Notes: generated by a model not told the origin, from the sequence alone. 64,000 nucleotides of DNA from Methanobacteriota archaeon (GCA_043799545.1 JAZDNO010000005.1:649-64648), one strand, 5' to 3'; counted from the stretch's first letter, positions 2,013 to 31,800 are shown. Translations and numbers: made by a program.

Positions 2013-5000
2013 TTGGGTCACGGAATGCGAATCACCCAAAGTATTATTACGCCGCAGGCCCAATGTTGTTATATCATGTGGCTGGGAAAAACGACATTGG
2101 TCTATGCTGCAGTGATTATCCTCCTGCTAGCCGCGGTGCCCATCAATAGCGGAACGAGGAGCATCCCCGACCAGGTTTTTAAACATACAAGAGGGGCTAG
2201 CGACCTCCCGGCGAAGAACGCTCCCCCCTCGGTTGCACCTAGAGTCATCAACACCACAATGGAAATCGAGAACATGACGATGTCGGTTTCCGAAGGAGCC
2301 ATGCTACATCATCTGGAAAAGCTGGTGGCGTTCGAGACACGCTATTCATACAGCCCTCGGATAATGGATGCGGCGGAATACGTTTACGAAACCTTCGACA
2401 ATTGCGGACTCCAGGTCGAATACCAAGACTACACATTCAGCGGCTACCAAATGCGGAATGTTATCGGAACACTGGAAGGCGCCAACACTTCGGCTCCAGC
2501 GTTCTATCTCGGCGCGCACCTGGATTCGACGTCGACCTCTGCATATATCGACGCATCTGGGGCGGACGACGACGGAAGCGGAGTGGCTGCAGTGTTGGTC
2601 GCAGCCGAAACCCTTAGCCATTACTCGTTCAACCGCACACTCGTGTTCTGCGCTTTCTCTGGTGAAGAGCAGGGACTACTGGGCAGCAAGGCATTCACCA
2701 AGATGCTTTACCAATCGGGAGCGAACGTCAGCGGGGCGATTTGCCTGGACATGATTGCATACACGCCCCCCATTCCGAACAACGTGCTGCGCTCCCGCGC
2801 CAACGCGGCGTCATTAGACCTAGCAAACTTCACGCACAACATCTCCGAGAAGTATCCAAGCATGGGAATCAACGCAACGGCGATATACGACAACGCGGCC
2901 AACAGCGACCACGCGGCCTTCTGGACATGGGGTTGGGACGCGGTCAATTTCATAGAGTACAACTATTCCACGAACCCAAACTACCACAAGACGACGGACA
3001 CCATCGAGTACCTTAACCTGACCTATGCGGCCAACGCGACGCAGGTGGCGATCGCCTGCGCCGCCGAGAAGTCGGTTTTGATGGGGGGGGACGCCAAAGG
3101 GCCAACCTTCAGGAACGTGGTACCGTTACCCGATGGACACGCGAACGAAACTCCCGTAGTAAGCGTTTGTGTGTTGGACCCGTCTTCCATCGACCCCGCA
3201 ACAGTTCAGTTATACGTCAATGGCTCAATTGTATCATGCGCCGTCACCCAATTTTCATGGGGCTACAATGTAACTTTCGAACCGCCTGCAGCATGGGGCG
3301 ACACCCAATTAATAGCATGCGGGGTCGTAGCCAACGACTCGCTTGGCAACTTTGCCGACCTGTGGTGGAATTTCACGGTCGATGCGACACCGCCTGAAGT
3401 TCCGGTTTTGGCAAGCGTGGAATTGTCAAGGGTACGGGCTGATCGGGGCAGCCTTGCGATTGACCTTGGACCCGCTGGCTCGGATGACGACTATTACGTG
3501 ACGAGCCCGAGCGTGATGCTCGATGGCGCGCTCTATAAAATGTGGTATGGCGGGTGTGACAACTACCCCAAGCCAACAAGCATCGGCGTATATAGGATAT
3601 TCTATGCCACGTCAACGGACGGCACAAACTGGACCAAGCACGGAGTCGTCCTGTCCCCGGGCGCGTCTGGGGAAATGGACTCGACGCACACCGCCGACTG
3701 CTCGGTCGTTAAAATAAACGGGACGTATAAGATGTGGTACAGCGCCCACAACGGCACGACATACCGGATAATGCACGCCACTTCGCCAGACGGCGAAAAC
3801 TGGACCAAGGTGGGGCTTGCTTTGGATTTAGGCTCGCCAGGCACGTACGATGACGCATGGGTCGCGAACCCCGAGGTACTCGTCGTCGGCTCTGAATACT
3901 GGATGTACTACACGGGCAACAGCGACATTAGATTCCAGGTATGCAAGGCAGTATCGAGCGACGGACTGAATTGGACCCGATGCGGTTTTGTAATCGGGTC
4001 GGGAGAGGCCGGTGAGAGGGATTCGGTTCTCGCATACGGGCCGGCGGTTTACCGCTCTGGTACTGGTTATGTCTGCTGGTACTCCGGTTTCGATGGTGTA
4101 AGGAACCGTTTGGTAAAAGCCGTGTCGGCCGACGGGAACAACTGGACGAAGATGGGGCTGGCGCTGGACATCGGGATTGCGGGCAGCTACGATTCCGCTG
4201 CAGTGACACACCCCGCATGTTTATTTGATGGCAACACGACCCGAGTATGGTACGGCGGAAGTAACGGTTATTACAGAATCCTGTCTGCGTCCTTGCCTGA
4301 ATCCGGACCAGGGCAAAAAAAAGAGAGCGTTGTCCTGCGATGGGCCACGGCCATTGGGGAGGTGGCGCGCTACGAGGTGCGGGCCTCTCTCACATGGGAG
4401 GACTGCTTGGCCGTCGAGGGTGGGGTCTGGATGCCGGCCCAAAATGGCTTGTTCGTTCACAACGGCATGGGCGCGGGCAACGGCACGGCATACTATTATT
4501 CGCTTCGGGCGGCGGACAGGGTTGGGCACATCAGCACGCACTGGACTCGCGCGGCGAAGGCAGCGGCTCCGGCCCCAGCAGGCTGGACCCCCCTTGGGCA
4601 CATCGATTCCGAAATGGCAAACCTGACAGCGGCTTTCGAAAGCCTGTCATGGACAGGGCTGATGGCATGGAACTCGACCGATGTGGCTAACCATTGGCGC
4701 ACAAACTTCACGGTCCGCCCCTCGTACATGAACGACCTCGCATCGCTCTGGTCGATGGCAGGCTGTTGGGTCAAAACAAACAACGCTTCGACATACGTAT
4801 CGGTGTGCCTAGTCAAGAACTTCACCGTACAGCTCCAGCCCGGCTGGAATTTCGTTTCGTACCCTCACATGGCAATCAAGACGGCTGCTCAGACAATGGG
4901 TGAAATCGGAAGCGAATGTGCGTCCATCGAGGGATTTGACCAATCTGCAACATACCGGCTGAAGGCGCTTTCCGGTACAGACCCGATGAGCCCCGGGCGG

Positions 5001-8255: not shown

Positions 8256-8924
8256 TCAGCGCGCTTTTGGACGAAATTTACCGGGCATGGGCGGTATTTT
8301 GGTTGTGGCCTTGAGCAATTTCATCCGTTCGAGCGAATCAATCGCTTGGATTACCAGATTATCGATGGCGTTTGTGGAGTCGAGGGTGACGAAGCGCCTC
8401 TCCTTTGAAAGCTCCATGTACGCCGCATGAACCCTCCGTAGATAGGCCAGCCTCTCGAACTTGGTCCTGCTCGGGCGGCCCGCCATCCTTTTCATAGACG
8501 TTTGAGGTTCGAGTTTAAGGAAGAAAGTCACATCCGGCGTCAGTATGCTTGGCGGGGATGCCTGTTTGAGCCATGCCAGCGCGCCACCGAGGCCGCCGGG
8601 AAACGTGGGGGCCAGGGCCGAGCCCTGGTAAGCCAGCGTGGAATCGTGGTACCGGTCTGATATCACGATACGTCCCCGGGCGGTTTCCTTGGCGATTTCG
8701 GTGCAATGGACGACCCTGTCAGCCATGAAAAGGTAGGCCTCGACATACGGGCCCGACCTGTCATCCCACGACCTGCGCACGGCATCGCCCAGCCAGGTGC
8801 CTGTCGGCTCGCGGGTTACAACCACCTTGTGGTTGCTGTTCAGCAGCGCTTTTGCCAGCGCCTTGACGAACGTGGACTTGCCGCAGCCGTCTATGCCCTC
8901 CACCGTGATGAAAAGACCGCGCAT
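8256..8924 (-). CDS. tmk: Thymidylate kinase.
   Basis: Starts at an internal Met (MRGLFITVEGIDGCGKST, P-loop) and carries the DRY motif (ISDRYHDSTLAYQG). The longer six-frame ORF extending to 9374 overlaps psd on the opposite strand and is taken as spurious. Confidence 0.85.
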   Translation of the reverse strand: MRGLFITVEGIDGCGKSTFVKALAKALLNSNHKVVVTREPTGTWLGDAVRRSWDDRSGPYVEAYLFMADRVVHCTEIAKETARGRIVISDRYHDSTLAYQGSALAPTFPGGLGGALAWLKQASPPSILTPDVTFFLKLEPQTSMKRMAGRPSRTKFERLAYLRRVHAAYMELSKERRFVTLDSTNAIDNLVIQAIDSLERMKLLKATTKIPPMPGKFRPKAR

Positions 8925-8991
8925 CCACCGTGTATCTGCGAGGTGGGAGATATAGGTTGCCGACCGAAACAGAAATATCACACCCGAGCGA

Positions 8992-9627
8992 TTGGAGGTC
9001 GTGCTAGCAAAAGGTTCGGGCCCGTTCATCGCGGCGGCCGTTATCGCCACAGCAACCTTCGTCGCGCTTGCGTATTTCTGGTCAAATGCAATCGCCATGC
9101 TCTTTGCGGGGCTGGCAGCCGGGCTCCCGGTCTTCGTTTTGTACTTCTTCAGGGACCCGGAAAGGATAATAGGGGAAGGTGTGGTTTCCCCCGCCGATGG
9201 GAAGGTCATGGCTGTCGAGGACGATGGAAAGGATTGGCACGTGGCGATTTTCATGAACGTCCACGACGTGCACGTGAATCGCGCGCCGCTCGATTGCAGG
9301 GTCGCATCCATGCGAAGGGCCGGCGACGGGTTCAGGCTGGCATACGAGCCTGGCTCCAGTTCCAACGTTCGCATGGAGTGGGGGCTCGATTCGGCGGCTG
9401 GGCGCGTGGGCGTGCATCAAATCACTGGATGGTTTGCGAGGCGCATCGTGCCGTACGCGGTCGAGGGCCAGGCGTTGAAGAAGGGGGAGCGCTTCGGCAT
9501 GATAAGGTTCGGCTCGAGGGTGGATGTCTGGCTGCCCAAGGAATCGTTCAAGCCGTCGGTGGAAGCCGGCCAGCGGGTATTGGCCGGCGCAAGCACCATT
9601 GCGGAGCCTGCGGGAGGCGCGGCCTGA
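8992..9627 (+). CDS. psd: Archaeal-type phosphatidylserine (archaetidylserine) decarboxylase proenzyme.
   Basis: Contains FGSRVD, the G-S self-cleavage (pyruvoyl-forming) site, plus an N-terminal TM segment. The stop codon overlaps the start of the next gene by 1 nt. Confidence 0.75.
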   Translation: MEVVLAKGSGPFIAAAVIATATFVALAYFWSNAIAMLFAGLAAGLPVFVLYFFRDPERIIGEGVVSPADGKVMAVEDDGKDWHVAIFMNVHDVHVNRAPLDCRVASMRRAGDGFRLAYEPGSSSNVRMEWGLDSAAGRVGVHQITGWFARRIVPYAVEGQALKKGERFGMIRFGSRVDVWLPKESFKPSVEAGQRVLAGASTIAEPAGGAA

Positions 9628-11429: not shown

Positions 11430-13001
11430 ATGCATTGGGTGGACGTCGTCGCCAAGGAACTGCTGGCCAAGGGCGGGCCGCAGGTAATTGCCAGCGGAAC
11501 TTCAATATCCGGGGTCATACACATAGGTAACGCCGGCGATGTGATTATCGCTGACGCGGTTGCTGCCGCTGTCAGGCGGATGGGCGGAGAGGCCAAAGTC
11601 CTCTGGATAATGGACGACCTGGACCCGCTGAGGAGCGTTCCGGCGAACATGCCGCAGGAGTTCCAGGCCGCGATAGGCAAGCCGGACTTCACCCTTCCGT
11701 GTCCGTTCAACGATTGCGAATCGTTCTGCCACCATTATTCCAGCGAGTTCATGGCGTCCTTGAAGCAGGTGGGGGTTGCCCCTGAGATAATCAGCGGTGC
11801 GGAGATGTACCGCACGGGGCTCTACGACGGGGACGTGCGCGTCGCTCTGACGAACGCGGGCGAGATAAGCAGGCTACTCAAAGAGATATCCGGCTCCGAA
11901 AAAGGGGCGGGGTGGCTGCCGTTCGACCCGATATGCGAGAGATGCGGCAAGATAGCTACCACCAAGGCCTATGCGTTCGAAGGGGACAATGTCCTTTACG
12001 AGTGCAAGGGCGGCGTCGCGGGAAAGAAGGCCATCCTCGGATGCGGACACAAGGGTGGGGTCACAATCCGGCAGGGGAAGCTGACCTGGCGCGTCGAGTG
12101 GGCGGCGAGGTGGAAGACCCTGGGGGTGACCTGCGAGCCATTCGGCAAAGAGCATGCGGCGGCCGGGGGGAGCTACGACACCTGCAGCGCCATCGTTCGC
12201 CGGATTTTCAAATACGAGCCACCATATCCGATTCGCTACGAGCACATCCAGGTCGGCGGCAAGAAGATGTCCAAGTCGGCGGGCAACGTCCGCACTCTGC
12301 AGGAGATAATCGATTTGGCGACGCCCGAGGTCACGCGCTTCTTCTTCTTCAGGACGCAGCCCAACGTCCACAAGGAGCTGGAGCTAGAGAAGAGCCTGCT
12401 GCCAGTCATCGAAGAGTACGAGCAGGCCGAGAGGATTTACTTTGGCGCGGAAAAGGCGTTCTCCGAGAAGGAGGAGCCGGACATCAAGAGGGCGTACGAG
12501 CTGTCCCAAGTCGGCCCGTCTCCGAAGCGGTTTTTCCAGGTCCGATACAGGCATCTGGTCTTCATCATGCAGATTTCCAAGAGCTGGGACGATGCCAAGA
12601 CCATGCTGTCCAGGACAGAGGATATCGCGTCGATGACCCCCGACGAGGAAGAATCGCTCAAGCGAAAGGCGCAGGCCGCGTTAAAGTGGGCTCGGGAGCA
12701 CGCCCCGCTGGACATGCGCGTCGAGCTCAAAGCGGAGCCTCCCGGCTTTGAGATGGCTGGAGAGGAAACCAGGGTGCTGGCAGCGGCATTGGCCAACCTC
12801 GAGAAGAGCGCCTGGAAGGCGGACCAGTTGCACGATTCTGTGCACCAGGCAGCGGTATCGGCGGGCGTGAAGCCCAAGGTCGCGTTCACGGCCATGTACA
12901 AGATATTCCTCGGCCAGGAGCGGGGCCCGAGGCTCGGGTACTTTCTGGCGACGCAGGAGAGGGAGTTCGTGCTGGTGCGCCTTAGGCACTATGCAGGGTG
13001 A
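11430..13001 (+). CDS. lysK: Class I lysyl-tRNA synthetase.
   Basis: HIGH-type motif (ISGVIHIGNAGD) and KMSKS motif (GGKKMSKSAGN) are present. The 523-aa length is typical of archaeal LysK. Confidence 0.85.
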   Translation: MHWVDVVAKELLAKGGPQVIASGTSISGVIHIGNAGDVIIADAVAAAVRRMGGEAKVLWIMDDLDPLRSVPANMPQEFQAAIGKPDFTLPCPFNDCESFCHHYSSEFMASLKQVGVAPEIISGAEMYRTGLYDGDVRVALTNAGEISRLLKEISGSEKGAGWLPFDPICERCGKIATTKAYAFEGDNVLYECKGGVAGKKAILGCGHKGGVTIRQGKLTWRVEWAARWKTLGVTCEPFGKEHAAAGGSYDTCSAIVRRIFKYEPPYPIRYEHIQVGGKKMSKSAGNVRTLQEIIDLATPEVTRFFFFRTQPNVHKELELEKSLLPVIEEYEQAERIYFGAEKAFSEKEEPDIKRAYELSQVGPSPKRFFQVRYRHLVFIMQISKSWDDAKTMLSRTEDIASMTPDEEESLKRKAQAALKWAREHAPLDMRVELKAEPPGFEMAGEETRVLAAALANLEKSAWKADQLHDSVHQAAVSAGVKPKVAFTAMYKIFLGQERGPRLGYFLATQEREFVLVRLRHYAG

Positions 13002-13066
13002 CGCACCAGCGAGAGAAAGGTTTTATAGCAATCGCGTATTCGCCACATTGCCAAATCCATTAGAAT

Positions 13067-13138
13067 AGCCCCGTGGTGTAGTGGTCAGCATAGGAGACTC
13101 TGGATCTCTTGACACCAGTTCGAATCTGGTCGGGGCTA
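13067..13138 (+). tRNA. tRNA-Gln (anticodon CUG), copy 1.
   Basis: Manually folded cloverleaf: acceptor AGCCCCG/CGGGGCU (A1:U72), U8, D-arm GUGU-AGUGGUCA-GCAU, anticodon stem GGAGA/UCUCU with loop CUCUGGA (U33, CUG, G37), 4-nt variable loop, T-arm ACCAG-UUCGAAU-CUGGU, discriminator A. A T-run follows. Confidence 0.8.
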
Positions 13139-13470
13139 TATCGTTTTTTAACGTTCTTGATTCTAGCGTAATTGCGCGATATTCGAACACTAGACTAATC
13201 CACGTCAATTCTTAGCGATTGGATTAGTCTGTGCCTCAGAGAGGGGCGATGATTGCACACCTGCCTCTCTTCGGTCTGGTCGGGGCTGATTGGAGACCAG
13301 ATTCGAACGAGGACTAACGGTATCTTGACGATGTAAGACTTGGGAGTTAGTCCGAAGTTCGGGCAAGGACCACATTATGGATGCCTTGCCCGAATTGGAT
13401 TAGAAAGGCCATATCTATTTTCTATATCGGGGTTTTTTTTATGTCCATAAGGGAGAGCAAGCTTCATGCC
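13139..13470. repeat. Hairpin-rich intergenic region containing direct and inverted copies of the tRNA-Gln 3' end; possible integration scar, MITE or ncRNA.
   Basis: A 13-nt exact direct repeat of the tRNA 3' part (TCTGGTCGGGGCT at 13124–13136 and 13276–13288). An inverted 13-nt copy of the T-loop region (ACCAGATTCGAAC at 13294–13306). Perfect hairpins include GACTAATCCA…TGGATTAGTC, GGACTAAC…GTTAGTCC and TTCGGGCAAGG…CCTTGCCCGAA. Confidence 0.5.
13140..13152 (+). terminator. Oligo-T tract (CGTTTTTTAACG) immediately 3' of tRNA-Gln copy 1; likely an archaeal terminator.
   Basis: A T6 run lies directly after the tRNA discriminator. Confidence 0.45.
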
Positions 13471-13472
13471 CT

Positions 13473-14435
13473 TTGCCGACATCTCCTCCGAAGATGGCTA
13501 CAGAAATACGAAGGATGGAAAAAAGGGACATTCAAGCCTACGCTGAGCTGTACAATCATGCGGAGGCGCACGATCCCGAATTCAGGCGAAAGAGCGCCAA
13601 AGACGTGGAGAGCGATATCTTTAGAAAGCCAACTGACACAATGGATGGGTATTTTATCGCGTTGGAGGACGGCAAGATGGTTGCAGGGGGTGGGGGAAGG
13701 ATAACCTCTGACAAGGGCGGCGATGGACGCAGCCACTTCACTTTTTACATCCTGCAAGAATTTCTAAAATCGGATGTCGAGCTCGCTCTTTTCGAGAGAA
13801 TCGCTGAATACAGCAAGGAAAAAGGGGCGATAAACCTCGGCATAAGGGCCAACACCAGCAACCTTTCAAAAATCAAGATGCTGGATCGGTTGGGGTTCGT
13901 GGAGAATGCCTACCAGCGGCACCACATGGAAAGGAGCCCGCACGGCGTTCCCGAGCCTGCGTTGCCGACTGGGTATAGGCTCCGCAACGCGAGAATGCCG
14001 GACGAGATGGGCGCGCTCTTGGAAACGCTCAATGATGCATTTTCCACACGAATGAAGTTTGGGCTGTTTACGATTGACGAGATTTCGAAATATACATACT
14101 TCTACGAGCTTGAATCTCTGCCCGGTCTCTTCGTATTGGAGAGGGAGGGTGACGGTAGAATTGTCGGTCTCGTAGGGAGCCAGATAGAGCATGTTTACAA
14201 TGTGGAGCATGGAAGGAAGCGGGGCGCGTCTTACTCGCTGGCCGTCATACCGTCCGAGAGGGGGAAGGGCTTCGGAAGGGCTCTGATGCAGAGCAGCCTG
14301 AGATGGCTGGACGAAAAAGGAATGGATGTCGCCTACCTTGGAGTGAACCATCAGAACCCGGACGCGGTTCATTTGTACAGCAACCTCGGATACGAAGTTG
14401 TCGGTATCTGGCAGGGATTCGAACGAAAGCTCTGA
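13473..14435 (+). CDS. GNAT-family N-acetyltransferase with tandem GNAT domains, in a locally AT-richer segment.
   Basis: Two acetyltransferase-like halves are present; the second has an R/Q-x-x-G-x-G/A motif (RGKGFGRALMQ). GC content is visibly lower from 13380 to 14460 than in flanking DNA. Confidence 0.55.
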   Translation: MPTSPPKMATEIRRMEKRDIQAYAELYNHAEAHDPEFRRKSAKDVESDIFRKPTDTMDGYFIALEDGKMVAGGGGRITSDKGGDGRSHFTFYILQEFLKSDVELALFERIAEYSKEKGAINLGIRANTSNLSKIKMLDRLGFVENAYQRHHMERSPHGVPEPALPTGYRLRNARMPDEMGALLETLNDAFSTRMKFGLFTIDEISKYTYFYELESLPGLFVLEREGDGRIVGLVGSQIEHVYNVEHGRKRGASYSLAVIPSERGKGFGRALMQSSLRWLDEKGMDVAYLGVNHQNPDAVHLYSNLGYEVVGIWQGFERKL

Positions 14436-14533
14436 GCTCATGGATTATACGATGTGCTACCACGTTTCTAGAACCCATCTAGGAACGCGAGCCACCCAAA
14501 TATTTTATACTGGTTTGCCGTAGGACTGGCGTC

Positions 14534-16216
14534 ATGAATGAAACGCCGCAAACCTCGAAGGACTTCATCCGCGAGGCGATAGACGAGGACCTCCGCACGG
14601 GGAGGTTCGATCGCGTCCACACGCGATTCCCGCCTGAGCCGAACGGCTACCTCCACATAGGCCACGCCAAGGCCATCTGGATAGACTACGGCGTTGCGCT
14701 CGACTACAAGGGCAAGTTCAACCTCCGGTTCGACGACACGAATCCTGCGAAGGAGGAGCAGGAATATGTGGACGGCGTAATCGAGGACGTGCGCTGGCTC
14801 GGCGCGGACTGGGGAGACAGGATCTTCTTCGCATCGGATTATTTCGAGCAGATGTATCAATGGGCCGTCAAGCTGATAAAGGCCGGCAAGGCGTACGTGG
14901 ACGACCTCCCGCCAGACGAGATAAGCCAGCACAGGGGCGACCTGACGACGCCAGGACGGAACAGCCCCTTCCGCGACAGGAGTGTCGAGGAAAATACGGT
15001 TTTGTTCGAGAGGATGCGAAAGGGGGAGTTCCCAGACGGCTCGAAATCGCTGCGCGCCAAAATAGACATGTCGCATCCCAACATGAACATGCGCGACCCG
15101 GTCATGTACCGCATCGTCCACAAGGGCCACCACCGGCAAGGAGACAAGTGGTGCGTATACCCAATGTACGATTGGGCGCACGGCCTGGAGGATTCCATCG
15201 AAGGCGTCACACATTCCCTGTGCTCGCTCGAATACGAGAACCATCGGCCGTTGTACGACTGGTTCATCGAACAGCTGGGCATCTACCATCCGCGCCAAAT
15301 TGAATTCGCACGCCTCAACATGACTTACACGGTCATGAGCAAGAGGATGCTCCTCGAGCTCGTCGAAAACAAGCTGGTCAACGGCTGGGACGACCCACGC
15401 ATGCCGACGATATGCGGCATGCGCCGGCGAGGATACTCTCCCGAATCGATAAAGGATTTCTGCAGCCGCATAGGAATCGCGAAGGCCCACAACGTAATCG
15501 ACGTGGGCATCCTCGAGCACTGCGTGAGGGAGGACCTCAACAGGTCCGCCCCGCGGTTCATGGGGGTCCTGAACCCGCTGAAGGTCGTAATCGAGAACTT
15601 GCCCGAAGGCCACGAAGACGAGATGGATGTGGTGAACAACCCGGAGAACGAGGCGGCCGGTCGGCGCAAGGTTCCATTCTCCCGCGAGCTGTTCATCGAG
15701 CGCGAAGATTTCATGGAGGAGCCTTCGAAGAAGTTCTTCAGGATGGCGCCGGGGCGAGAGGTGAGGCTGAGGAACGCCTACCTAGTGACTTGCACGGGTG
15801 TCGAGAAGGACGGCGGGGGTATAGAGGCAGTGAAGTGCGCGCTCGACCCAGCCACGCGCGGCGGCGACGCCCCCGACGGCAGAAAGGTCAAGTCGACGAT
15901 ACATTGGGTGTCTGCGGCGCACGCCATCGACGCCGAGGTCAGGCTATACGACAGGCTATTCACCATCGAGGACCCTGCGGGGCAGAAGGAGCGCGACTTC
16001 AAGGAGTACGCGAACCCGGATTCTCTAAAGGTTCTCGGCGGATGCAAGGTCGAGCCCGCTGTCCGCGCGCTTGCGCCGCTCTCGCGCTTCCAGTTCGAAA
16101 GGCTGGGCTATTTCTGCGTAGACCCGGACACGACGCCCGGCAAGATAATTTTAAATAAGACTATAGGATTGCGCGATTCATGGTCGAAGGTCCAGCACAA
16201 GGAGGCGGGCGCTTGA
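14534..16216 (+). CDS. glnS: Glutaminyl-tRNA synthetase, bacterial/eukaryotic type.
   Basis: Near-colinear similarity to E. coli GlnRS from N- to C-terminus: [10 protein letters not shown]…[21 protein letters not shown] (HIGH), [22 protein letters not shown] (KMSKS-like), and a C-terminal [15 protein letters not shown] anticodon-binding region. Confidence 0.85.
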
Positions 16217-16336
16217 CATCCTGCGTTTCCACATCTTCGGTGGAAAACCAGCAGCAGCGGCGCCCCGCGATGTGCTAGGGCGGACGGACCGTTTTTGGCA
16301 CGTTGCGGGGCTTAAACATCAAACTTTTTTTGCTGC

Positions 16337-16409
16337 AGTCCCGTAGTGTAGTGGCCAATCATCCGGGGTTCTGGACCCCGGGACGGAAGTTCGAATCTTC
16401 CCGGGACTA
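16337..16409 (+). tRNA. tRNA-Gln (anticodon CUG), copy 2, with a different sequence from copy 1.
   Basis: Manual fold: acceptor AGUCCCG/CGGGACU (A1:U72), U8, D-arm GUGU-AGUGGCCAA-UCAU, anticodon stem CGGGG/CCCCG with loop UUCUGGA (CUG), T-arm GGAAG-UUCGAAU-CUUCC, discriminator A, followed by a T-rich tract. Confidence 0.75.
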
Positions 16410-16985
16410 TCTTTTCCTTTTCTTTATGAATATCAACCCATAATGGTATGGCCCCGGCTCGAACCAGTTATAGAATTCGAGGCCGAGAGCCGTCACGCGC
16501 TCCACGGCCGCATCCTCTGAAATCCGATGCCCGTACGGCGGACCTTTCGTCATGGGGCGCTTCTTCCAGTCCGCTATCGCCAGCCGCCCGCCGGGTCTGA
16601 GAATCCGCATCACTTCGCGCAGCGTGCCGTCTCCGTCCAGCTCATGAAAGACGTTCACCATCAGCGCCAAATCGATGGAACCGTCGTCGAGTGGTATGGA
16701 ATCCTCTGTCGTGAGAACCGTCGAGATGTTGTCCATCCCTTTGGCACGCGCCCTCAATGCCTCCAGCATTTCCGCCGAGAGGTCGAGGGCGTAGACCTTG
16801 ACCGTTCCGCCGACCAACCCCGCGAGAGGTATTGAGAAGTAGCCAGTTCCGGCTCCGACGTCGGCGGTGACCGCGCCCCGTTTGATGTCCAGCTGCTCGA
16901 CGACGGCGTCCGGGTCCAGATACGTCCGTCTCTCGGGGGAGTCGAGGCGCTCCCTGTTCTTCGGGTCGAATTTTTTGTCGTCCAT
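16407..16985 (-). CDS. Class I SAM-dependent methyltransferase.
   Basis: Motif I VGAGTGYFS and an acidic motif II (ALDLS) are present. Start taken at Met 24 of the longer ORF (MDDKKFDP). Confidence 0.65.
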   Translation of the reverse strand: MDDKKFDPKNRERLDSPERRTYLDPDAVVEQLDIKRGAVTADVGAGTGYFSIPLAGLVGGTVKVYALDLSAEMLEALRARAKGMDNISTVLTTEDSIPLDDGSIDLALMVNVFHELDGDGTLREVMRILRPGGRLAIADWKKRPMTKGPPYGHRISEDAAVERVTALGLEFYNWFEPGPYHYGLIFIKKRKR

Positions 16986-17207
16986 GGCTCGCGCTCGCCA
17001 GTGAAAAATAAAGTGGCTGACAGCGATCGACAGTTCCCGTTGGCTCGCGCACAACAGTACAGTGCCAAACGCTGGCGGACTTAACTTCCGGGTTCGGAAT
17101 GAGACCGGGTGTATCCCCGCCGCTATGGCCGTCAGACCGAACCCTAGTAAAGTGAGGATGTATAAAAGGGCTTCGGCGTAGAGCTTGATGGGGCAGCTGG
17201 AGTAAGC

Positions 17208-22561: not shown

Positions 22562-25500
22562 TCAATCGGTTTTTCTGCGTTCGCGCTTGAAAAATATCAT
22601 CGATGCCGAAATTATGAAACACGCTGGAACGAAAATCGTATCGTATTCCGGTATCACCAGGCTTGCCGCATCCTCCGAGCCCGAGAGCAATCTTCCCGTC
22701 GAACTCGTATAGTTCAACCGTGCGAGATTATCGATGATACCACTCTGCGCGGTCGCGTTAATTTGTATGGTTACCGTGAACGAATGCGGCCCTGGCGCGA
22801 CATTCACGAAGTACCATCCATAGGTCAGACCGCTTGAGCCGGATGGAGCCATGCTCGACGAAACGAATGCCACGCCTTGAGGGAGCGTGTCGTTCACCCA
22901 AACGTTGGCGGCGATCGTGCTTCCCGTATTGTTATAAAATATCGTGTAAGTCACGACGCTCCCCGCGAGTGCCTGAGCGACATCAGCGACCTTGGCTACG
23001 ATAATCGTCGGTCTGGTTGCTGTGATGTTTGCCCAATCCGTGGTTCGAGCAAACCTGCTTCCGAGGGCGTCATTGTAGTCCGCGGTTCCCGTGTTGTTCA
23101 GCGAGGCGCCGTCCGCGATCGACGTGCCCACCCGGACAGTCAAAGACAGGGAATTAACCGTGTCGTGGGCAATCGTGCCGAAGTACCAAGCAACATTTTG
23201 GCCCGCAACGCTTTGCGGTGCTGGGACTGCGCCTTCGAAAGACGCGCCCGCAGGCATCGTGTCGTTGACCCAGACGCGCTTCGCGTTGCCGTCGCCGGTG
23301 TTGTTGAACCATATGGTGTAAGTCACAAGCTCGCCTACCTCGACGGTGGACAAGTTCACGGATTTTTGAACGACGATTATGGGCATCTTGCGTTCATTGG
23401 GGGCACGCCTGGTGGGCCCTTCGGGTACGAGCCATCCGTTGTTGCTGACGTAGAAGTCGTTCGCATCGCTGTCTGTGTCGAGCGGCATGCCGGTGTCCTC
23501 GTGCTTGAACCGGCTCCATGTGCTCCCGGCTGCCACAGATGGGTACGTCGTATCGTCCACCAGCGTACCTCCTGCATCGTAAAGCCTGACCTGTCTGCCG
23601 TTGTCGGGAAACGTATTCTTGGGAACGTCCACTGCAAGATATTCCGTGCCCGAGCCCCAGGCGCCAACTGTCGTCCCAGCGGGATAGGTGTACTGATAGT
23701 TGTTACCCACGCGAATCCTCCAGTCACTGATATCGATTACAGCTGCTGTCGGGTTGCACAATTCGATCCATTCGGTGTTGGGGCGTGTGGATATTTCGTT
23801 TATTACGACGTTGTCTCCGGCGGGAGTTCTCGTATTCGAATCCGATGCGGGTTTGACGGCAGAATCCGAAGCTCCTTGCCAGTTCTCCGCGATGGTAAGC
23901 ACCCTACCATTACTCGTCAACGCGGACCCTGCGAGAATCTCTATGGAACCTCTCGACGCCGCAGCCTTCGCCGCTCCCGCGTAAAGCCAGGATTCAGAGT
24001 TGCCGCCGCACGCGTAAAAGCTGGCGTTTTTCACTCGTCCCCCAGAGCCACGAACCGTGATGGCCCTTTCAGCGCCAAAACCAACCCGGATGGGCACGCC
24101 TGTCGACTGGTCGCCATCGGCATCCAGGTATATCGTGATGACGTCTTCCCCTATCATCGGAGGTAGCGAGACCGGGCCAATGTATATGCTGATGCGGTCG
24201 CCACGGTATTCGACCGGAAAATCAGAGGGGATTGTGGTGTTCAACCAAATGTCGGAACCCTTCGGCCAATCAAGGATTCCGTCCCCGTCCCTGTCTCCGC
24301 TTTCAAAGGTGTCGTTTACCCCGTTGTTGTCGAAGTCCAGGGGGAACGAGTCCGACGAATCCGGCACGCCGTCGAGGTCGCTGTCCACGTCTCGCGGAAG
24401 CGATACTGGCGCGGTTTCAGGTCGTGGCAAAAAAGTTGGGAATTTCGCTCCGCCCAGCGCCCTTCCATCCACATCGAGTTTTACGTATGAGCCGCCCCCA
24501 TAAGAAACGTGAGAAAAGCCAACCAAATCGACATCCGGGCAATAGAACGGGTCGCGCTCGTCCAAAAAGACGTCCCCCGATGGCAGGGAAACCGGAATGA
24601 TATCGTCCCAATCCGAGAGATATCCGTCTATTGCGAACCCCGAGCCTCTCATTTTATGCACGAAGGGTTCGGAATCGATGACTGTCAATCCAACGTCGTC
24701 CAAGCTTACGCTCGCCATCTCCACAGATAGGCCGCCATCCGACGTGGAAAGGTTCCCTCGGAATTTGATGACCACAGTAGAATCGGAGGGTATGTCCAAA
24801 TTCCCGACGAAGAACCGCGCAATCGAATCGTTCACAAAGATGGGGTCGATTACGGAGTTATCGATTTCAAGCCAAGGCGTTCCGACCAAGGCGGCTGAGG
24901 TCAGTCCCGATCCCTCGAACGCCAGTTCGAAACCGCCTTCCACGTCGCCGCTGCTGAACAATTCGCACTCGAGAAGTGTGCTGGGCCCAGAATCAACGGA
25001 AGGCAGACCAGCGAATGAGCGGCAAAACGTCTTCGACGGCGTCCCCGAAAGCGGACAGTCGAGGACATCCTTGCCTCCGGCGCCGTCAGTGGCGGCGATT
25101 ATGCAGCGAATTTGAGGTGAGAAGCCGATAATCGAAGCCTTGCACTCCACCATCGGACCCTCCGATGCCAGGTTTATTGAGGTCGGGCAGCCGAAACCGT
25201 TCCAATCGTCCCGCTCGGCGTTCGAATCGAACCGTTTCAAGACGCGGGTCGCCGCATTTCCATCATACCCCATTGCCTCTACGAGATAATCGGCTCCGAT
25301 TCCGTAAATCGGATAGCCGGTTTGCGCATCTCCGTCGGAATCAATTAACGCGTAGATGGCCGAAGCGGTATTTCGCACCCGAGGCGTATCCGTAAAAACG
25401 TTGCCCCGCATCAAGACGAATAATGAAACGGTATCACCTTCGCAAATCATCCCGCCCTGCACAATGTCGCTGCTCTCCGAAGGGCAATCGCCTGGCAAAT

Positions 25501-27484
25501 CGTTGACGACGTAGGGGGCCGTCCACTCACCGAAGCGTCCGTCGATACCATTGTTCGAAGATGTGGGGGCGAACATGCTTGAGATTAGGGGCACGGTCAG
25601 AAGAGCCAGCACACACGCGGAAATTAGCAGGGTCGCCACCCAAACGCGCTGCGTCTCCGAGCGCAGGTATCGCCTGCTCGTTTTGTAATCAGCGAGCCCA
25701 TTGGTCATTCCCGTCCCGTTTACAAGGCCACGGAAGTCTGATAAATCAGCGAGCCCATTGTTAAGCCCATTTGTGCGACCCAGCCCGTTTGACAGGCCAT
25801 TCGTTCTCCCGAGCCCGTTGGTACGCCCCCGCAATCCGTTGGTCAAACCGTTGGTAAGGCCGTTGGTGCGCCCTCGCAACCCATTCGTGAGGCCGTTGGT
25901 CCTTCCTCTTCCAGCGCCGTTGACGGGCCCTCCAGGTTTTGCATCCAAGCCGTTGGTACGCCCCGGCCCCGCGGCTCGCGCCGCCTCGAACTCCTTTCTC
26001 ACGACCGCCTCGATGAGTTCTCCGTTGGTCAATCCGACAGCCTTGCCGCGTACGAGCCCGTTCGCCAACCCCCGCTTGCGCCCCTCGGGCGAATCGTGAC
26101 GCTTGCGCTCCCCGGCCTTCTGCTTATCGGCGCCCAGAGCCTTCTTGAACGCTTCCAGGTCATGCAAGAGTTCCCCGCTTTCCTCGCGCTCCTCGACCTC
26201 GTTTATCGCCTCCTCTGCGATGGTCATGAGGATGTCCAGTTCCTCCTCTTCCACGCCAAGGCCGCAAATGGGGCATATCCCCGCCTCGTCCAGAAATGCG
26301 CCGCAGCGCTGACACGAATTCTCGTCCAGAAGCTTGGCAAGAGCGGCCAGCCCGTCCAGCTCCCTCTCGACGGATTGGGAATCGACCGTTGCGCTCCGCT
26401 GGGTTCCGCATATCGGGCATGTTGGCTTTTGGCTGCTCACGAAAGCCCCGCAATCCGGGCACATCTCAAGGTCGCCTGCGGGCACAGTCTCGAGTTTGTC
26501 CTCGTGCAAGACCCTTTTTAATATCGTTGACATCTCTGCCGGGTCGAGCCTCGCACCGCAAATCATGCAATTGGGGCGTCCCTTGTCAACAAAGGCGCCG
26601 CAACCGGGGCACACGCCGATGTCCATCGCGGTTGTCTGAAGCACATCCCTGAGCTTGTTTGGCGTTGACGCATCCCTCGACTTGTCCTTGCCGCAGTTCG
26701 GGCATGCCGAGGCGCTCGCCGAAATCATGGCGCCGCAGTTCGCGCATAGGTCCGGCGTCTCGATTTCGATGAGGGGCGTCTCCTCGCGTGCCGTCCCGTC
26801 AATTGCTGGTTTGCCTCCGCACAGCGGGCACGACCCCTTTCCGATTGTGAAGAACGAGCCGCATTCGGCGCAAACAGTGACTGACGGTAGCTCCTCCTCA
26901 TCCAGGTCCAACTCTTCATTCTCGGCGAGGAATTCTAGTATGACGCCAGCCGCATCCGCAATCTTCGGGACGCTGCTTTTCATGCGGCCGCTCGTCGCGT
27001 GGAACGACGAATCCACGACAACGATGAGCATGGCGCCCGTCTTTTGGGCTTTCCCCGTCATGGATTTGGCAATTTCCAGGAGGTCTTCACCCTCGCCGAA
27101 AGTCGCCAGCGCTGCGGGGATGACGTCCGCGATTATCAGGAGATTCTCTTTGCCCTTCCAGGACCGAAGGATTTTGTTGAGGGCGACCTTGACATTCAGC
27201 AGGTCTCGGGCACACCGCGTTACCACATCTCCCGCCTCCACCCCGATTACCCTCTCTGTGTTGTGGGAATACCAGTCTATGACCTTCAGCCGTCCATCCG
27301 CAACTGCCACTATTTCCGGTTCGAGGAGGTCGTCCGGGGGCAATCGCGACGTGATGACTGCGACGTGCCATTTTGACGGGATGGCCAGGGAAAGAAGCTC
27401 CCTGGCGAAGATCGCGAAGCCACCTGCCTGGTCTATCTCGACTGAAAGGACAGGTCTCGATTCGCTCCTTTCTTTCTCGCTCAT
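22562..27484 (-). CDS. Giant (1640 aa) type-I-like membrane protein 1: cytoplasmic zinc-ribbon arrays, TNGL repeats, one TM, extracellular TSP3/LTD/DUF11 domains, C-terminal PEF-CTERM-like anchor.
   Basis: Cytoplasmic part: an N-terminal alpha/beta domain without Walker A, five CxxC…CxxC zinc ribbons, and (G)RTNGL tetrapeptide repeats. TM helix VWVATLLISACVLALLTVPLI. Extracellular part: Asp-rich Ca-binding TSP3-like motifs (DVDSDLDGVPDSSD…DRDGDGILD), one lamin-tail domain (NVVINEISTRPNTEWIELCNPTAAVIDISDWRIRVG), two DUF11-type repeats (VTYTIWFNNTGDGNAKRVWVNDTMP). The C-terminus PEYDTIFVPACFIISASMIFFKRERRKTD is a PEF-CTERM-like signal. The start is 1 nt after the stop of the upstream KaiC gene. 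Confidence 0.75.
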   Translation of the reverse strand: MSEKERSESRPVLSVEIDQAGGFAIFARELLSLAIPSKWHVAVITSRLPPDDLLEPEIVAVADGRLKVIDWYSHNTERVIGVEAGDVVTRCARDLLNVKVALNKILRSWKGKENLLIIADVIPAALATFGEGEDLLEIAKSMTGKAQKTGAMLIVVVDSSFHATSGRMKSSVPKIADAAGVILEFLAENEELDLDEEELPSVTVCAECGSFFTIGKGSCPLCGGKPAIDGTAREETPLIEIETPDLCANCGAMISASASACPNCGKDKSRDASTPNKLRDVLQTTAMDIGVCPGCGAFVDKGRPNCMICGARLDPAEMSTILKRVLHEDKLETVPAGDLEMCPDCGAFVSSQKPTCPICGTQRSATVDSQSVERELDGLAALAKLLDENSCQRCGAFLDEAGICPICGLGVEEEELDILMTIAEEAINEVEEREESGELLHDLEAFKKALGADKQKAGERKRHDSPEGRKRGLANGLVRGKAVGLTNGELIEAVVRKEFEAARAAGPGRTNGLDAKPGGPVNGAGRGRTNGLTNGLRGRTNGLTNGLTNGLRGRTNGLGRTNGLSNGLGRTNGLNNGLADLSDFRGLVNGTGMTNGLADYKTSRRYLRSETQRVWVATLLISACVLALLTVPLISSMFAPTSSNNGIDGRFGEWTAPYVVNDLPGDCPSESSDIVQGGMICEGDTVSLFVLMRGNVFTDTPRVRNTASAIYALIDSDGDAQTGYPIYGIGADYLVEAMGYDGNAATRVLKRFDSNAERDDWNGFGCPTSINLASEGPMVECKASIIGFSPQIRCIIAATDGAGGKDVLDCPLSGTPSKTFCRSFAGLPSVDSGPSTLLECELFSSGDVEGGFELAFEGSGLTSAALVGTPWLEIDNSVIDPIFVNDSIARFFVGNLDIPSDSTVVIKFRGNLSTSDGGLSVEMASVSLDDVGLTVIDSEPFVHKMRGSGFAIDGYLSDWDDIIPVSLPSGDVFLDERDPFYCPDVDLVGFSHVSYGGGSYVKLDVDGRALGGAKFPTFLPRPETAPVSLPRDVDSDLDGVPDSSDSFPLDFDNNGVNDTFESGDRDGDGILDWPKGSDIWLNTTIPSDFPVEYRGDRISIYIGPVSLPPMIGEDVITIYLDADGDQSTGVPIRVGFGAERAITVRGSGGRVKNASFYACGGNSESWLYAGAAKAAASRGSIEILAGSALTSNGRVLTIAENWQGASDSAVKPASDSNTRTPAGDNVVINEISTRPNTEWIELCNPTAAVIDISDWRIRVGNNYQYTYPAGTTVGAWGSGTEYLAVDVPKNTFPDNGRQVRLYDAGGTLVDDTTYPSVAAGSTWSRFKHEDTGMPLDTDSDANDFYVSNNGWLVPEGPTRRAPNERKMPIIVVQKSVNLSTVEVGELVTYTIWFNNTGDGNAKRVWVNDTMPAGASFEGAVPAPQSVAGQNVAWYFGTIAHDTVNSLSLTVRVGTSIADGASLNNTGTADYNDALGSRFARTTDWANITATRPTIIVAKVADVAQALAGSVVTYTIFYNNTGSTIAANVWVNDTLPQGVAFVSSSMAPSGSSGLTYGWYFVNVAPGPHSFTVTIQINATAQSGIIDNLARLNYTSSTGRLLSGSEDAASLVIPEYDTIFVPACFIISASMIFFKRERRKTD

Positions 27485-28842: not shown

Positions 28843-31800
28843 CTAAAACTGTATTTTTCGTCGGATTCTGATTAATACCATTAATGAAGCAAGAATAGTG
28901 AGTGTTGGCACTGCGAAATCACCGAACTCTGGCACGACGACCATTGCCAAATCAGAGCTTCCGGGCAACGACCAACCGTTTGACGTTGTGTAATTGAGAT
29001 CGACAAGGTTGGAGATTATGCCCGACGGGCATGTCGCGTTTACCTGCACGGTGATGGTGAACGAGTATGCGCTAGGGGCAACGTTCGTGAAATGCCAGCT
29101 GTAAGTCAGACCGCTGCTCGACGACGGTGGAACGCTCGCTGACAGATACGTGACGCCGATAGGCAGAGTATCATTTATCCAAACATCCCCGGCGTTTCGG
29201 CTGCCTGTATTGTTATACCATATCGTATAGGTAATCAGGCCGCCCGCCTGCACGTCCGTAACATCCGCAACCTTGGCGACTGTTATCTGTGGGCGCCTGC
29301 AGGTGACGATGGCCGTGTCGGAGCTCGGCGTCATCGGCCTCTGCAGCTGGTCCGAGTAGGCAAGATTCGCCACGTTTGTCAGGACCGTGCCGTCGGCGAC
29401 CGTGGGGGCGATTGTCGCAAATAAGGCGATGGAATTGACAGAATCGTGAATTACATTTGCGAAGTACCAGGTCAGAAGTTGTCCGCTGACGGCTGCCGGC
29501 GCGACGCTGGCGCTGACGTACGTCATGCCCGCTGGTAGCGTGTCGTTCAACCACACGCGCTTCGCATTTCCGTCGCCGGTGTTGTTGTACCAGAGCGTGA
29601 ATGTGACGATGTCGCCGGGCGCTGCCTCGGCCAAAGAGGCCGTCTTTTCAACGCTCATCACCGGGCGCTTGCGGTCGTTAGGCGCCGCCGGAGTCGGCCC
29701 TTCGGGCACCAGCCAGCCGTTGTTGGAGATGTAGAAATCATTGGAATCGACCCCCGTGTCGAGCGGATAGCCCGTGTCCTCGTGCTTGAACCTGGACCAG
29801 GTCTGGGTTGCCAGGATGCCGCCTGGGTAATTGGTCTCGTCTATCGTGGTCCAGAAGAACCCCGTCTGCCTCTGAAGCCTAACCCGGCTCCCCCCATTTG
29901 GGAAGTCGTTGCCACCGCCGGTGTTGGCTACGAAATATTCCGAGCCAGAGCCCCAGGCACCGAGCACAGTGCCAGCCGGGAAGGTGTAGGCGGTTGAGAA
30001 GAAACCCACCCTGATGCGCCAGCCGCTGACGTCGACAGGCGAACCAGTGGGGTTGCACACTTCGACCCACTCGTTGGTGTCCCCCTGGACCGATATTTCA
30101 TTGATGACTATCCTCGACAGCGGATCCGTCACGACGACGGACGCCTGCGCAGTCGTGCGCGGCAGCGACGATCCAGCCAGGTTTTTGTAATCCCCCGTGA
30201 CCGTGTTCGTCAGGACCGTTCCGAGGGGAACCGCACTGCCTATTTGCGCTTGGACAGTTATGAAGTGGTTCCCCGGCGCCACGGCAACGAAGTGCCAGTA
30301 CTGGACTTGACCGGACGTGGCGTTCGGGAGGACGCTCGACGAAACAAAGGTCGTCCCGACCGGGAGAGTGTCGTTGAGCCATACGTGGCCTGCCTCGCCC
30401 GACCCCGTGTTGTTGTAATGTATTGTGTAGGTGATGTCGTCGCCGGGGCTGGGAGTGGGCACATCGACGACCTTCGCGACGGCGATGGATGGGGACGGCG
30501 CCGAAACGACGATGGTCCAGGCGCTGGAAGATGACGGCAGCTGGCGGGATGATTGGTCCGTGTAGGCGAGGGCCGCGACGTTGATGAGAGCCGTTCCGAC
30601 CGGCGTTGATGATGGAATGTGGGCGACCAGCGTCAGGAAATGAGCTCCTGGCGCCACGCTCGTGAAATACCAACCGTATGTCTGCCCCGCGACGGACACG
30701 TATGGTGTGCTGGACGAAACGTAGGTCATTCCGACGGGAAGCGTGTCGTTGAGCCAGACGTGCGCCGCGTTGCGGCTTCCTGTGTTGTTGTAATGGATGG
30801 TATAGGTGACGTCGTCCCCCGGCGCGGCTATGGAAAGGTCGGCGATCTTGACGACGGTTATCTGGGGCCGAACGCAAGTCACAGCCACAGCGTCCGAACT
30901 GGACGCCATCGGCCTGCGAAGCTGGTCCGAGTATGCCAGGCTCGCCGAGTTGGTGAGGACCGAGCCATCGACGACGGACAGATCGATGGTGGCGGAGACG
31001 CTGAGGGAGTTGACCGTGTCGTGGATCACGTTGGCGAAGTACCAGGTGAGCAGCTGGCCGTTTATCGAAGATGGGGCGACGCTGGCGCCAGCGTACGTCA
31101 TGCCCGTCGGCAGCGTGTCGTTGAGCCACACGTTCTTCGCGTTACCATCGCCTGTATTGTTGTACCACAGGGTGAACGTCACCAGGTCTCTGGGAGCCCC
31201 TTCAGGGGCGTTGCTCGATTTCTCGATGGCCATCACCGGGCGACTTCTGTCGTTGGGCGCGCCCCTCGTCGGCCCCTCGGGCACAACCCAGCCATTGTTC
31301 GAGATGTAGAAATCATTGGCGTCGTTGTTCGTGTCGACCGGCTGCCCGGTTTCCACATCCTTGAAGCGTGACCACGTCTGCCCGTTGACCGTCGCTGGGT
31401 AATTGGACCTGTCGATTTCGGCGCCGGTGCCCGTGGTCAGGCGGACGACGCCTCCCGCGTCTGGAAACCGGTTGTTCTGTGTCATGGTGGCAACTAGGTA
31501 TTCCGAACCCGAGCCCCAAGCTCCGATGGCGGTTCCCACAGGGAACGTGTACCTGAGTTGGTTGCCGGAATAGATGCGCCAGCCGCCTATGTTTATCGCA
31601 GAGCTTGTGGGGTTGCAGAGTTCGACCCACTCCGGGTTGGGCCTGGCTGCCAGCTCGTTTATTACTATCCTCGATGCGGGCGACGCGACCGTGACGGAAA
31701 CTTGCGATACTGTGGGCGGCAGCGAGACGCCCGCAGAGTCCTTGAATGCGCAAGTGACGAGGTTTGTCAGAATGGTTCCGGGCGCGACGCCAGCGCCCAC

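Follow-up and report, generated by a model that had tools for sequence, protein, structure and literature searches.

Lack of a glutaminyl-tRNA synthetase (GlnRS) has been treated for 25 years as a defining archaeal trait, explained by incompatibility of archaeal tRNA-Gln with bacterial and eukaryotic GlnRS. More than 2,500 genomes were surveyed in 2016 without a GlnRS being found in any archaeon (PMC5388404), and reviews of 2020 and 2022 discuss the reasons why archaeal genomes are without it (PMC7373986, PMC9499178); this literature regards GatDE as the sole archaeal route and holds that GlnRS never made its way into archaea (PMC9499178, PMC7373986, PMC5388404). A 2022 paper speaks of 'almost all archaea' being without GlnRS, citing Di Giulio 2020 (PMC8762117), and a 2024 preprint mentions in passing a GlnRS encoded next to cox genes in Heimdallarchaeia (bioRxiv 10.1101/2024.07.04.601786). 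The present analysis concerns a 64,000-nt stretch of DNA (the window) from a Methanobacteriota archaeon (GCA_043799545.1, JAZDNO010000005.1:649-64648), in which the locus at 13,067-16,409 consists of a glnS gene encoding a bacterial-type GlnRS between two different tRNA-Gln(CUG) genes. The best explanation, and a quite probable one, is that a Thermoplasmatota archaeon now stably carries, in its chromosome, the gene for a working GlnRS of bacterial ancestry; most likely the enzyme would glutaminylate the organism's own archaeal-style tRNA-Gln directly. The sequence fact is already public through automatic annotation, as NCBI and JGI pipelines name these proteins glutamine--tRNA ligase in many metagenome-assembled genomes (MAGs), and full-text literature searches found no paper describing GlnRS in Thermoplasmatota. 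New here is that the two tRNAs flanking glnS belong to different classes.

Protein families were assigned with Pfam, with NCBIfam and its curated equivalog cutoffs, and by comparison with PDB sequences. The preliminary description of this DNA had called the glnS open reading frame (ORF) bacterial in type and colinear with E. coli GlnRS, and both statements hold: NCBIfam model TIGR00440 (glnS) scores 697.3 bits against a cutoff of 425.8 and is covered over positions 1-524 of 524, whereas the archaeal gltX model TIGR00463 (362.0 bits, cutoff 401.75) and PRK04156 (306 bits, cutoff 516) remain below theirs. The 560-aa product matches PF00749 at residues 28-336, PF03950 at 339-438 and PF20974 at 455-530, the latter two corresponding to two C-terminal beta-barrel anticodon-binding domains, and the class I motifs HIGH (residues 41-44) and VMSKR are both intact inside the Rossmann-fold catalytic domain. 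It is about 60% identical to solved GlnRS structures, aligning end to end with the E. coli enzyme (692 bits, residues 8-553) and scoring 698 bits with that of P. aeruginosa, 527 bits with that of D. radiodurans, 465 bits with human GlnRS, where the alignment begins at human residue 264, and 180 bits with the archaeal GluRS of M. thermautotrophicus (PDB 3AII). The appended N-terminal domain of eukaryotic GlnRS (~200-260 aa) is missing. The top NCBIfam score belongs to the GlnRS/YqeY fusion NF011291 (857 bits, profile positions 9-562), and the YqeY tail (profile positions 563-769) is likewise missing, the match ending at 562 of 769 and the protein at residue 560.

Residues R30, E34, L136, Y211, C229, Q255, R341, R402, R410, R412, Q517 and R520 of E. 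coli GlnRS are all conserved in the window protein. R30, Y211, C229 and Q255, which we take from the E. coli structures to be the residues that select glutamine, are the same in the window protein as well as in 120 of 120 relatives; in E. coli GlnRS, L136 opens the acceptor end, and R341, R402, R410, R412, Q517 and R520 read the anticodon through contacts with U35, G36 and C34. Judged by its sequence, the ORF is a bacterial-type GlnRS and not an archaeal GluRS. The family is ordinary and well known; the unusual part is the archaeal host.

ARAGORN and Rfam covariance models found exactly two tRNA genes in the window, both of them tRNA-Gln(CUG) on the + strand. They are the two non-identical genes that had been described as bracketing glnS, and each does have the archaeal-style A1-U72 pair attributed to it. 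Two tRNA-Gln genes around the sole GlnRS gene of an otherwise tRNA-free window are not a chance pattern. Between the two tRNAs, the acceptor stem (AGCCCCG vs AGUCCCG) is different, and so are the D-arm, the anticodon stem and the T-stem. The upstream tRNA has an 8-nt D-loop, the D-arm GUGU-AGUGGUCA-GCAU with U13-G22, the anticodon loop CUCUGGA, the pairs A1-U72, G2-C71 and C3-G70, and A73; the downstream tRNA has a 9-nt D-loop with GGCCAAUCAU, a motif common to archaeal tRNA-Glu, the anticodon loop UUCUGGA, the pairs A1-U72, G2-C71 and U3-A70, and A73. Both form a cloverleaf with a YUG anticodon and have the features listed for archaeal tRNA-Gln, A1-U72 and A73 (PMC9499178). Neither has the bacterial features (U1-A72, and G73 as in E. 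coli). The codon CAG is used 268 times in the window and CAA 87 times, a share of 25% for CAA; therefore, an isoacceptor with the anticodon UUG must exist elsewhere in the genome.

Comparison with two sets of tRNA-Gln genes, one from the surroundings of glnS in 12 distinct archaeal contexts and the other from 120 metagenome loci chosen by the D-arm pattern of the downstream tRNA, distinguishes two classes. Class C, to which the downstream tRNA belongs, has a 9-nt D-loop (GGYCAAUCAU), no U-G pair at positions 13-22 and a D-arm like that of archaeal tRNA-Glu; class S, to which the upstream tRNA belongs, has an 8-nt D-loop (e.g. GGUCAGCAU), which is the length found in bacterial tRNA-Gln, together with U13-G22, and does not have the tRNA-Glu-like D-arm. 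Base 73 is A in 113 of 115 metagenome examples of class C and G in one of the 115, while in class S it is G in seven of 14 distinct genes (L082, L087, L215 and L216, where L081-L090 and L213-L217 denote glnS loci of relatives) and A in the window clade, L214 and L217. By these features class C is the generic, canonical archaeal tRNA-Gln and class S a derived archaeal class.

The classes also differ in their distribution. A class S gene is found upstream of glnS, no more than 5.5 kb away, in 11 of the 12 archaeal contexts, mostly directly adjacent to it (the distance is ~5.3 kb in L090, 2.1 kb in L217 and shorter elsewhere), and near-identical class S genes accompany glnS in L081, L082, L083-85, L086, L087/88, L090, L214, L215, L216 and L217. 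ARAGORN called 18 class S and two class C genes in the archaeal glnS loci, and 117 class C and no class S genes in the pattern-selected metagenome loci, none of which contains a GlnRS gene (89 have at least 2 kb of flanking sequence on one side). Among 60 control glnS loci, all bacterial and taken from the matches listed in a scan of genome contigs with the GlnRS, three have a tRNA-Gln near glnS. The tRNA-Gln genes beside glnS in three related bacterial loci, one of Omnitrophota (L016) and two of Bacteroidales (L018 and L037), have U1-A72, G2-C71 and C3-G70; that of L016 has G73 and those of L018 and L037 have A73, and the anticodon loop of L016, CUCUGGA, equals that of the upstream tRNA of the window. 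Co-transfer of the tRNAs from bacteria was considered and rejected, because both window tRNAs are archaeal in every arm and bacterial tRNA-Gln adjacent to glnS is clearly different. The idea of a dedicated tRNA acquired along with the enzyme is thus kept in part: a class of tRNA linked to glnS on its upstream side exists, but it did not come from bacteria with the gene, and the downstream tRNA is of the canonical archaeal class.

The archaeal surroundings that had been proposed are confirmed by a class I LysRS (lysS_arch, 446 bits), a GfcR-like phosphoribosyltransferase (PRT), archaetidylserine synthase, a PRK04140-type regulator, a KaiC-type ATPase that has archaeal KaiC families among its matches, and a 5S rRNA gene in the window. 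The gene order PS-decarboxylase, CDP-alcohol phosphatidyltransferase, DHNA, PRT, lysS, tRNA-Gln(CUG), glnS, methyltransferase (-), M29 peptidase (-), radical SAM, SHMT, DUF7121 and giant DZR/DUF11 protein is common to the window and the contigs of its closest homologs (GlnRS 75-83% identical) on both sides of glnS, and these contigs belong to five or more independent NCBI, ENA and JGI assemblies of different samples. More distant archaeal glnS loci (~69-73% identity) carry MCM, TBP, aRF1, NAC, PurP and PAC2, and one is located on a 1.92 Mb single-contig Thermoplasmatales MAG; the PRT-lysS-tRNA-glnS linkage is still present in L215, with a GlnRS of 69% identity. The G+C content of glnS is 0.594, and 0.80 at third codon positions (GC3), which compares with GC3 of 0.80 for lysS and 0.835 for the M29 peptidase gene. 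The A/T-rich box AAATATTTTATA, which has an equivalent, AATTTTTTATAA, at the same distance before glnS in L083, is a putative archaeal promoter, and the glnS mRNA may be leaderless or have a short leader. Because synteny is shared by independent assemblies, GC3 is host-like and a TATA-like box is present, the contig is considered sound and the gene a long-term resident: the host is a Thermoplasmatota archaeon, a chimeric contig is excluded for practical purposes, and the acquisition is not recent, as had been supposed from composition, the synteny being kept across relatives with 69-83% identical GlnRS.

The best 120 homologs of the window protein include many from MAGs labelled Thermoplasmatota, Thermoplasmatales, Thermoplasmata or Euryarchaeota, and also sequences of Planctomycetes, Phycisphaerae and 'TA06' at ~72% identity. 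A neighbour-joining (NJ) tree of 145 sequences was built from these 120 homologs, 23 labelled bacterial GlnRS among the matches listed, and E. coli GlnRS. All 11 of 11 archaeal-labelled or context-verified GlnRS fall into one 100-sequence clade that has zero bacterial-labelled members and is nested among bacterial GlnRS; the subclade of the window has bootstrap support of 100. Within the resolution of a crude NJ tree, this topology agrees with a single ancient transfer from a bacterium to an archaeon and vertical descent thereafter.

At the base of the archaeal clade branches a GlnRS labelled 'candidate division TA06 bacterium DG_24' (P0103, locus L213), which one source names glutamate--tRNA ligase. 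The genes on its contig (catalase, FUR and a Kelch protein) leave the domain of the organism undecided; this sequence may come from an archaeal contig that was mis-binned, or it may hint at the donor.

Table 1. Features of the glnS locus and its vicinity, in window coordinates
Feature	Position	Strand	Basis or remarks
Upstream tRNA-Gln(CUG), class S, 72 nt	13067-13138 (ARAGORN 13066-13139)	+	Rfam, 63.4 bits
Conserved structured non-coding element	13139-13440	+	Minimum free energy -105.7 kcal/mol, z = -4.97
Double-GNAT acetyltransferase (MshD-like two-domain layout)	13473-14435	+	Pfam GNAT families
TATA-like A/T-rich box AAATATTTTATA	14498-14509	+	25 nt 5' of glnS ATG; read off the sequence
glnS, 560-aa bacterial-type glutaminyl-tRNA synthetase	14534-16216	+	Pfam, NCBIfam and PDB comparisons
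120-nt spacer	16217-16336	+	Hairpin UUCCAC...GUGGAA, T5 run and A/T-rich stretch before downstream tRNA
Downstream tRNA-Gln(CUG), class C, 73 nt	16337-16409	+	ARAGORN; Rfam, 56.0 bits
Lone 5S rRNA	17015-17136	-	Rfam, 95.7 bits; no linked 16S or 23S

The exact bracket of glnS by two tRNA genes, confirmed in the window, is not a conserved feature of its nearest relatives, for the downstream tRNA is missing in the four closest ones sampled (L081, L083, L086 and L090). In L083 and L086 the stop codon of glnS abuts that of the methyltransferase gene, and in L081 and L090 no tRNA follows glnS. The spacer between glnS and the downstream tRNA has no homolog in the relatives' loci that were examined and is confined to this genome. 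The last three nucleotides of the downstream tRNA (CTA, 16407-16409) are the stop codon of the convergent methyltransferase ORF on the opposite strand, the C-terminus of which (...KKRKR) is longer than in relatives, as expected from insertion of a segment containing the tRNA. Within the subclade, one gain of the downstream tRNA is more parsimonious than at least four losses, and the GNAT gene before glnS, with its lower GC3, is likewise specific to the window; these points argue for a recent local gain in the lineage of the window. Farther away in the archaeal clade, tRNA-Gln clusters around glnS recur. L216 has the order tRNA-Gln(CUG, class S), glnS, tRNA-Gln(UUG, class C, A73), tRNA-Gln(UUG, class S, G73) and tRNA-Glu. 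L082, on a closed Thermoplasmatales MAG, has the same layout, but its class C tRNA-Gln(UUG) is a pseudogene (11740-11812, + strand; Rfam 30.5 bits, six non-standard pairs including G2-A71, no ARAGORN call) adjoined by an intact tRNA-Gln(UUG) with a short D-loop and by tRNA-Glu. In L215 both class S isoacceptors are situated between lysS and glnS. The window is a variant of this arrangement, its class C gene reading CAG instead of CAA.

These observations may be accounted for by a sequence of events in which the ancestor of a large Thermoplasmatota clade would have acquired a bacterial glnS once, from a Planctomycetota-, Omnitrophota- or TA06-like source if the nearest bacterial relatives (~72% identical) are a guide. 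The gene would then have been inherited vertically, adopting host codon usage and gaining an archaeal-type promoter, and its product would provide or replace the function of the route through non-discriminating GluRS (ND-GluRS) and GatDE. The transfer appears feasible, as the tRNA-Gln genes beside glnS in L016, L018 and L037 already have G2-C71, C3-G70, either A or G at position 73 and, in L016, the anticodon loop of the upstream tRNA. The acceptor stem of class S differs from those of L016, L018 and L037 only in that the weak first pair, 1-72, is flipped. This is the pair that E. coli GlnRS melts, and because it is melted and the acceptor stem otherwise matches, an orthogonality argument based on E. 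coli need not hold for this GlnRS subfamily. That argument has been the basis for holding archaeal tRNA-Gln orthogonal to bacterial GlnRS (PMC9499178, PMC8762117). After the acquisition, class S would have arisen as a derived tRNA-Gln that stayed linked to glnS, its D-loop cut to the bacterial 8 nt, its tRNA-Glu-like D-arm lost and A73 replaced by G73 in several lineages, and the downstream class C gene would be of the legacy type. Such changes in class S are as expected if tRNA-Gln co-evolves with GlnRS and escapes GluRS.

Several points weigh against this interpretation, which is built from sequence comparisons. The archaeal-only clade has bootstrap support of 26, which becomes 74 with the 'TA06' sequence and P0031 added; because the deep NJ nodes are weak, a single transfer, as opposed to multiple ones, and the suggested donor are both tentative. 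The position of E. coli D235, an acceptor-stem reader, is N in the window protein and is polymorphic (N/D/V) in bacteria and archaea. Class S of the window lineage keeps A73, so that the 'bacterialising' trend is not universal, and all class S tRNAs were found by way of glnS, an ascertainment bias that limits their frequency estimate to Thermoplasmatota with glnS. A scan of window ORFs turned up no gatD, gatE or gltX, a negative of little weight given that 64 kb is a small part of the genome. Full replacement of the indirect route, redundancy of the two routes, and two insulated routes using the two tRNA classes are all possible.

Among other explanations, it is very improbable that the protein is not a GlnRS in function and is instead GluRS-like (as H. 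pylori GluRS2, which is tRNA-Gln-specific) or a non-translational paralog. GlnRS and GluRS do fall into common Pfam families, and 362 bits is still a sizeable score for the archaeal gltX model, but the glnS equivalog is far over its cutoff and the gltX scores are under theirs, the alignment with E. coli GlnRS is full-length, R30, Y211, C229, Q255 and both beta-barrel anticodon domains are conserved, and the protein is ~72% identical to the GlnRS of GlnRS-using bacteria. Even less credible is an assembly or binning artefact in which a bacterial glnS fragment was joined to archaeal DNA. The closest named non-archaeal homologs are bacterial (~72% identity) and one basal GlnRS sequence carries the TA06 bacterium label, as such an artefact might produce; however, the junctions on both sides of glnS recur in at least five independent assemblies from NCBI, ENA and JGI, one relative is a 1.92 Mb single-contig MAG, composition and GC3 are as in the neighbouring genes, and an archaeal-type TATA box precedes glnS.

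Two further alternatives, each less probable than the working enzyme proposed here though far from negligible, concern the meaning of the two tRNAs. GlnRS could serve class S only, with class C served by ND-GluRS and GatDE encoded elsewhere; this possibility, which we regard as doubtful, differs from the best explanation only in the survival of the indirect route and the partitioning of the tRNAs. It would suit an intact downstream tRNA (56 bits) that keeps the D-arm GGCCAAUCAU common to archaeal tRNA-Glu, lost from class S, and A1-U72 with A73, which are canonical for tRNA-Gln of archaea without GlnRS, and it would suit the intact class C gene beside glnS in L216. On the other hand, no gatD, gatE or gltX was seen in the 64 kb that could be searched, the class C copy of L082 is decaying, the four closest relatives sampled have no class C gene at the locus, and insulation is not obvious when both classes have the same anticodon, the main identity element for GlnRS in E. 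coli. It is also possible, though not probable, that the bracket has no functional meaning, the downstream tRNA being an ordinary tRNA-Gln gene that was recently inserted or translocated here and the upstream tRNA adjoining glnS only as the original landing site, for instance of a tRNA-targeting integrative element. Absence of the downstream tRNA and its 120-nt spacer from the four closest relatives, for which one gain is more parsimonious than at least four losses, would accord with this, as would the partial and inverted copies of the 3' end of the upstream tRNA that resemble att-site remnants (see below) and the inversion of the upstream tRNA in L083-85. Nevertheless, L082 and L216, which are distant lineages, both have a canonical-class tRNA-Gln directly 3' of glnS, the upstream linkage is kept in the unrelated genomic contexts of L082, L087, L214 and L216, and whole tRNA-Gln/tRNA-Glu clusters surround glnS in L082, L215 and L216.

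If the working, long-resident GlnRS of bacterial ancestry is accepted, a more extended but tentative reading is that the Thermoplasmatota clade has replaced, or is replacing, the GatDE route by the imported GlnRS and is remodelling tRNA-Gln identity, the window genome being an intermediate with one remodelled and one legacy tRNA-Gln(CUG); in such an intermediate each tRNA may have its own pathway, one direct and one indirect. Nature would here have put to the test the Tumbula/Soll hypothesis, which reportedly holds that GlnRS was barred from archaea because tRNA-Gln had co-evolved with GatDE. The locus and its relatives point to a bacterial GlnRS that entered an archaeal lineage and was long kept there, amid tRNA-Gln genes that apparently changed in response. 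They make testable how the identity barrier between aminoacyl-tRNA synthetases and tRNAs is crossed, whether the direct and indirect routes coexist in one archaeon, and whether GluRS turns discriminating, and naturally 'hybrid' pairs of GlnRS and tRNA could serve genetic-code engineering.

A pattern scan of all collected loci for gatD and gatE had its only match in the Ignavibacteriota MAG of bacterial glnS locus L030, in which gatD-like and gatE-like genes (~996-2552 and 2375-4330, both on the - strand) lie ~1.7 kb from glnS. The numerous close homologs listed for this GatE (P0121-P0240), with 68-95% identity and annotated as GatE, are all from Ignavibacteria and Bacteroidota MAGs. To our knowledge, the literature describes GatDE as exclusive to archaea; the Ignavibacteriota genes look like a mirror-image transfer.

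The structured element that follows the upstream tRNA has a core of two hairpins (~13295-13403) and ends with GGGG-T8. The window has a 'long form' with an insert (~13150-13294) that holds a direct copy of the 3' end of the tRNA, UCUGGUCGGGGCU (~13275-13290), and next to it, at 13297-13310, an inverted copy of the T-loop and T-stem, GACCAGATTCGAAC. The core is conserved in L081 and L083-86, the latter having a short form, and compensatory changes occur at four of 20 predicted pairs in four sequences; in L081 the direct copy co-varies with the T-stem of the tRNA of that locus. Where the tRNA is inverted, the element moves together with it. At E <= 10, the element matches no Rfam model other than the 3' half of the upstream tRNA. 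A glnS leader or T-box-like riboswitch was rejected, since in L083-85 the element is inverted with the tRNA and faces away from glnS, and there is no Rfam match. Candidate identities for the element are a small RNA linked to the tRNA, a structure for processing or termination, and what is left of an att site. In another Thermoplasmatota MAG (L089), an array of ~100-nt imperfect repeats, each with CCTCGGTCCAGTCGCATC and a hairpin-like segment, is found at 8823-9500, upstream of a tRNA-Gly near glnS.

Among the other genes nearby, the GNAT gene between this element and glnS has G+C content of 0.526 and GC3 of 0.636, compared to ~0.80 for its neighbours, and is not found at the corresponding position in L081, L083 or L086; it is probably a recent insertion outside the Gln-charging unit. 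Read at its longest, the methyltransferase ORF (16407-17054) would run with its 5' end into the 5S rRNA gene, so that its actual start codon is probably the ATG near 16985. In relatives, there is a gap of matching size between the methyltransferase and M29 peptidase genes, where the window has the 5S rRNA. Two giant ORFs on the - strand (22562-27484, 1640 aa, and 28843-37341, 2832 aa) are separated by a KaiC-like ATPase gene and both encode double zinc ribbons at the N-terminus, along with TPR repeats, lamin-tail domains and many DUF11/DUF7619/DUF7507 repeats; the arrangement is conserved in L083 and L086.

Compared with known systems, the window enzyme has the same length, domain order, HIGH and VMSKR motifs, and, where checked, substrate- and anticodon-contact residues as bacterial GlnRS (E. 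coli, PDB 1GTS/1QTQ/1QRS; P. aeruginosa, 5BNZ), and is unlike them in its archaeal host and in having Asn at the position of D235. Adaptation of this Asn to C3-G70 in archaea was considered and rejected, as N, D and V all occur in both domains with no clean correlation with the tRNA. The presumed substrates of the window enzyme have A1-U72, C3-G70 or U3-A70, A73, G37 and A38, whereas E. coli tRNA-Gln has U1-A72, G3-C70, G73, A37 and U38. The closest non-archaeal enzymes are the GlnRS of Planctomycetota, Phycisphaerae, Omnitrophota and 'TA06' (~70-72% identity), several of which also have N at position 235, but the glnS-adjacent tRNAs of Omnitrophota and Bacteroidales have U1-A72 and bacterial D- and T-arms. 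The Deinococcus-type GlnRS-YqeY fusion (NF011291; PDB 2HZ7) gives the best NCBIfam score, yet the window protein is without its C-terminal YqeY/GatB-like domain, and PDB 2HZ7 scores below E. coli GlnRS.

The GlnRS of other Thermoplasmatota (e.g. Thermoplasmatales archaeon ex4484_30, the closed MAG CP070798.1 of assembly GCA_020343515.1, and GCA_016214785.1) belong to the same clade (69-83% identity) and share the class S tRNA-Gln linkage, the nearest ones having the whole neighbourhood in common; among those nearest relatives, only the window has an intact downstream class C tRNA-Gln(CUG) and an upstream GNAT gene. Heimdallarchaeia MAGs are also reported to encode GlnRS, in another phylum and genomic context (bioRxiv 10.1101/2024.07.04.601786). 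The pathway of ND-GluRS and GatDE makes the same product, Gln-tRNA-Gln, and the downstream tRNA has the canonical substrate features of that pathway (A1-U72, A73 and a tRNA-Glu-like D-arm); unlike that pathway, the window enzyme is predicted to charge its tRNA directly, in one step.

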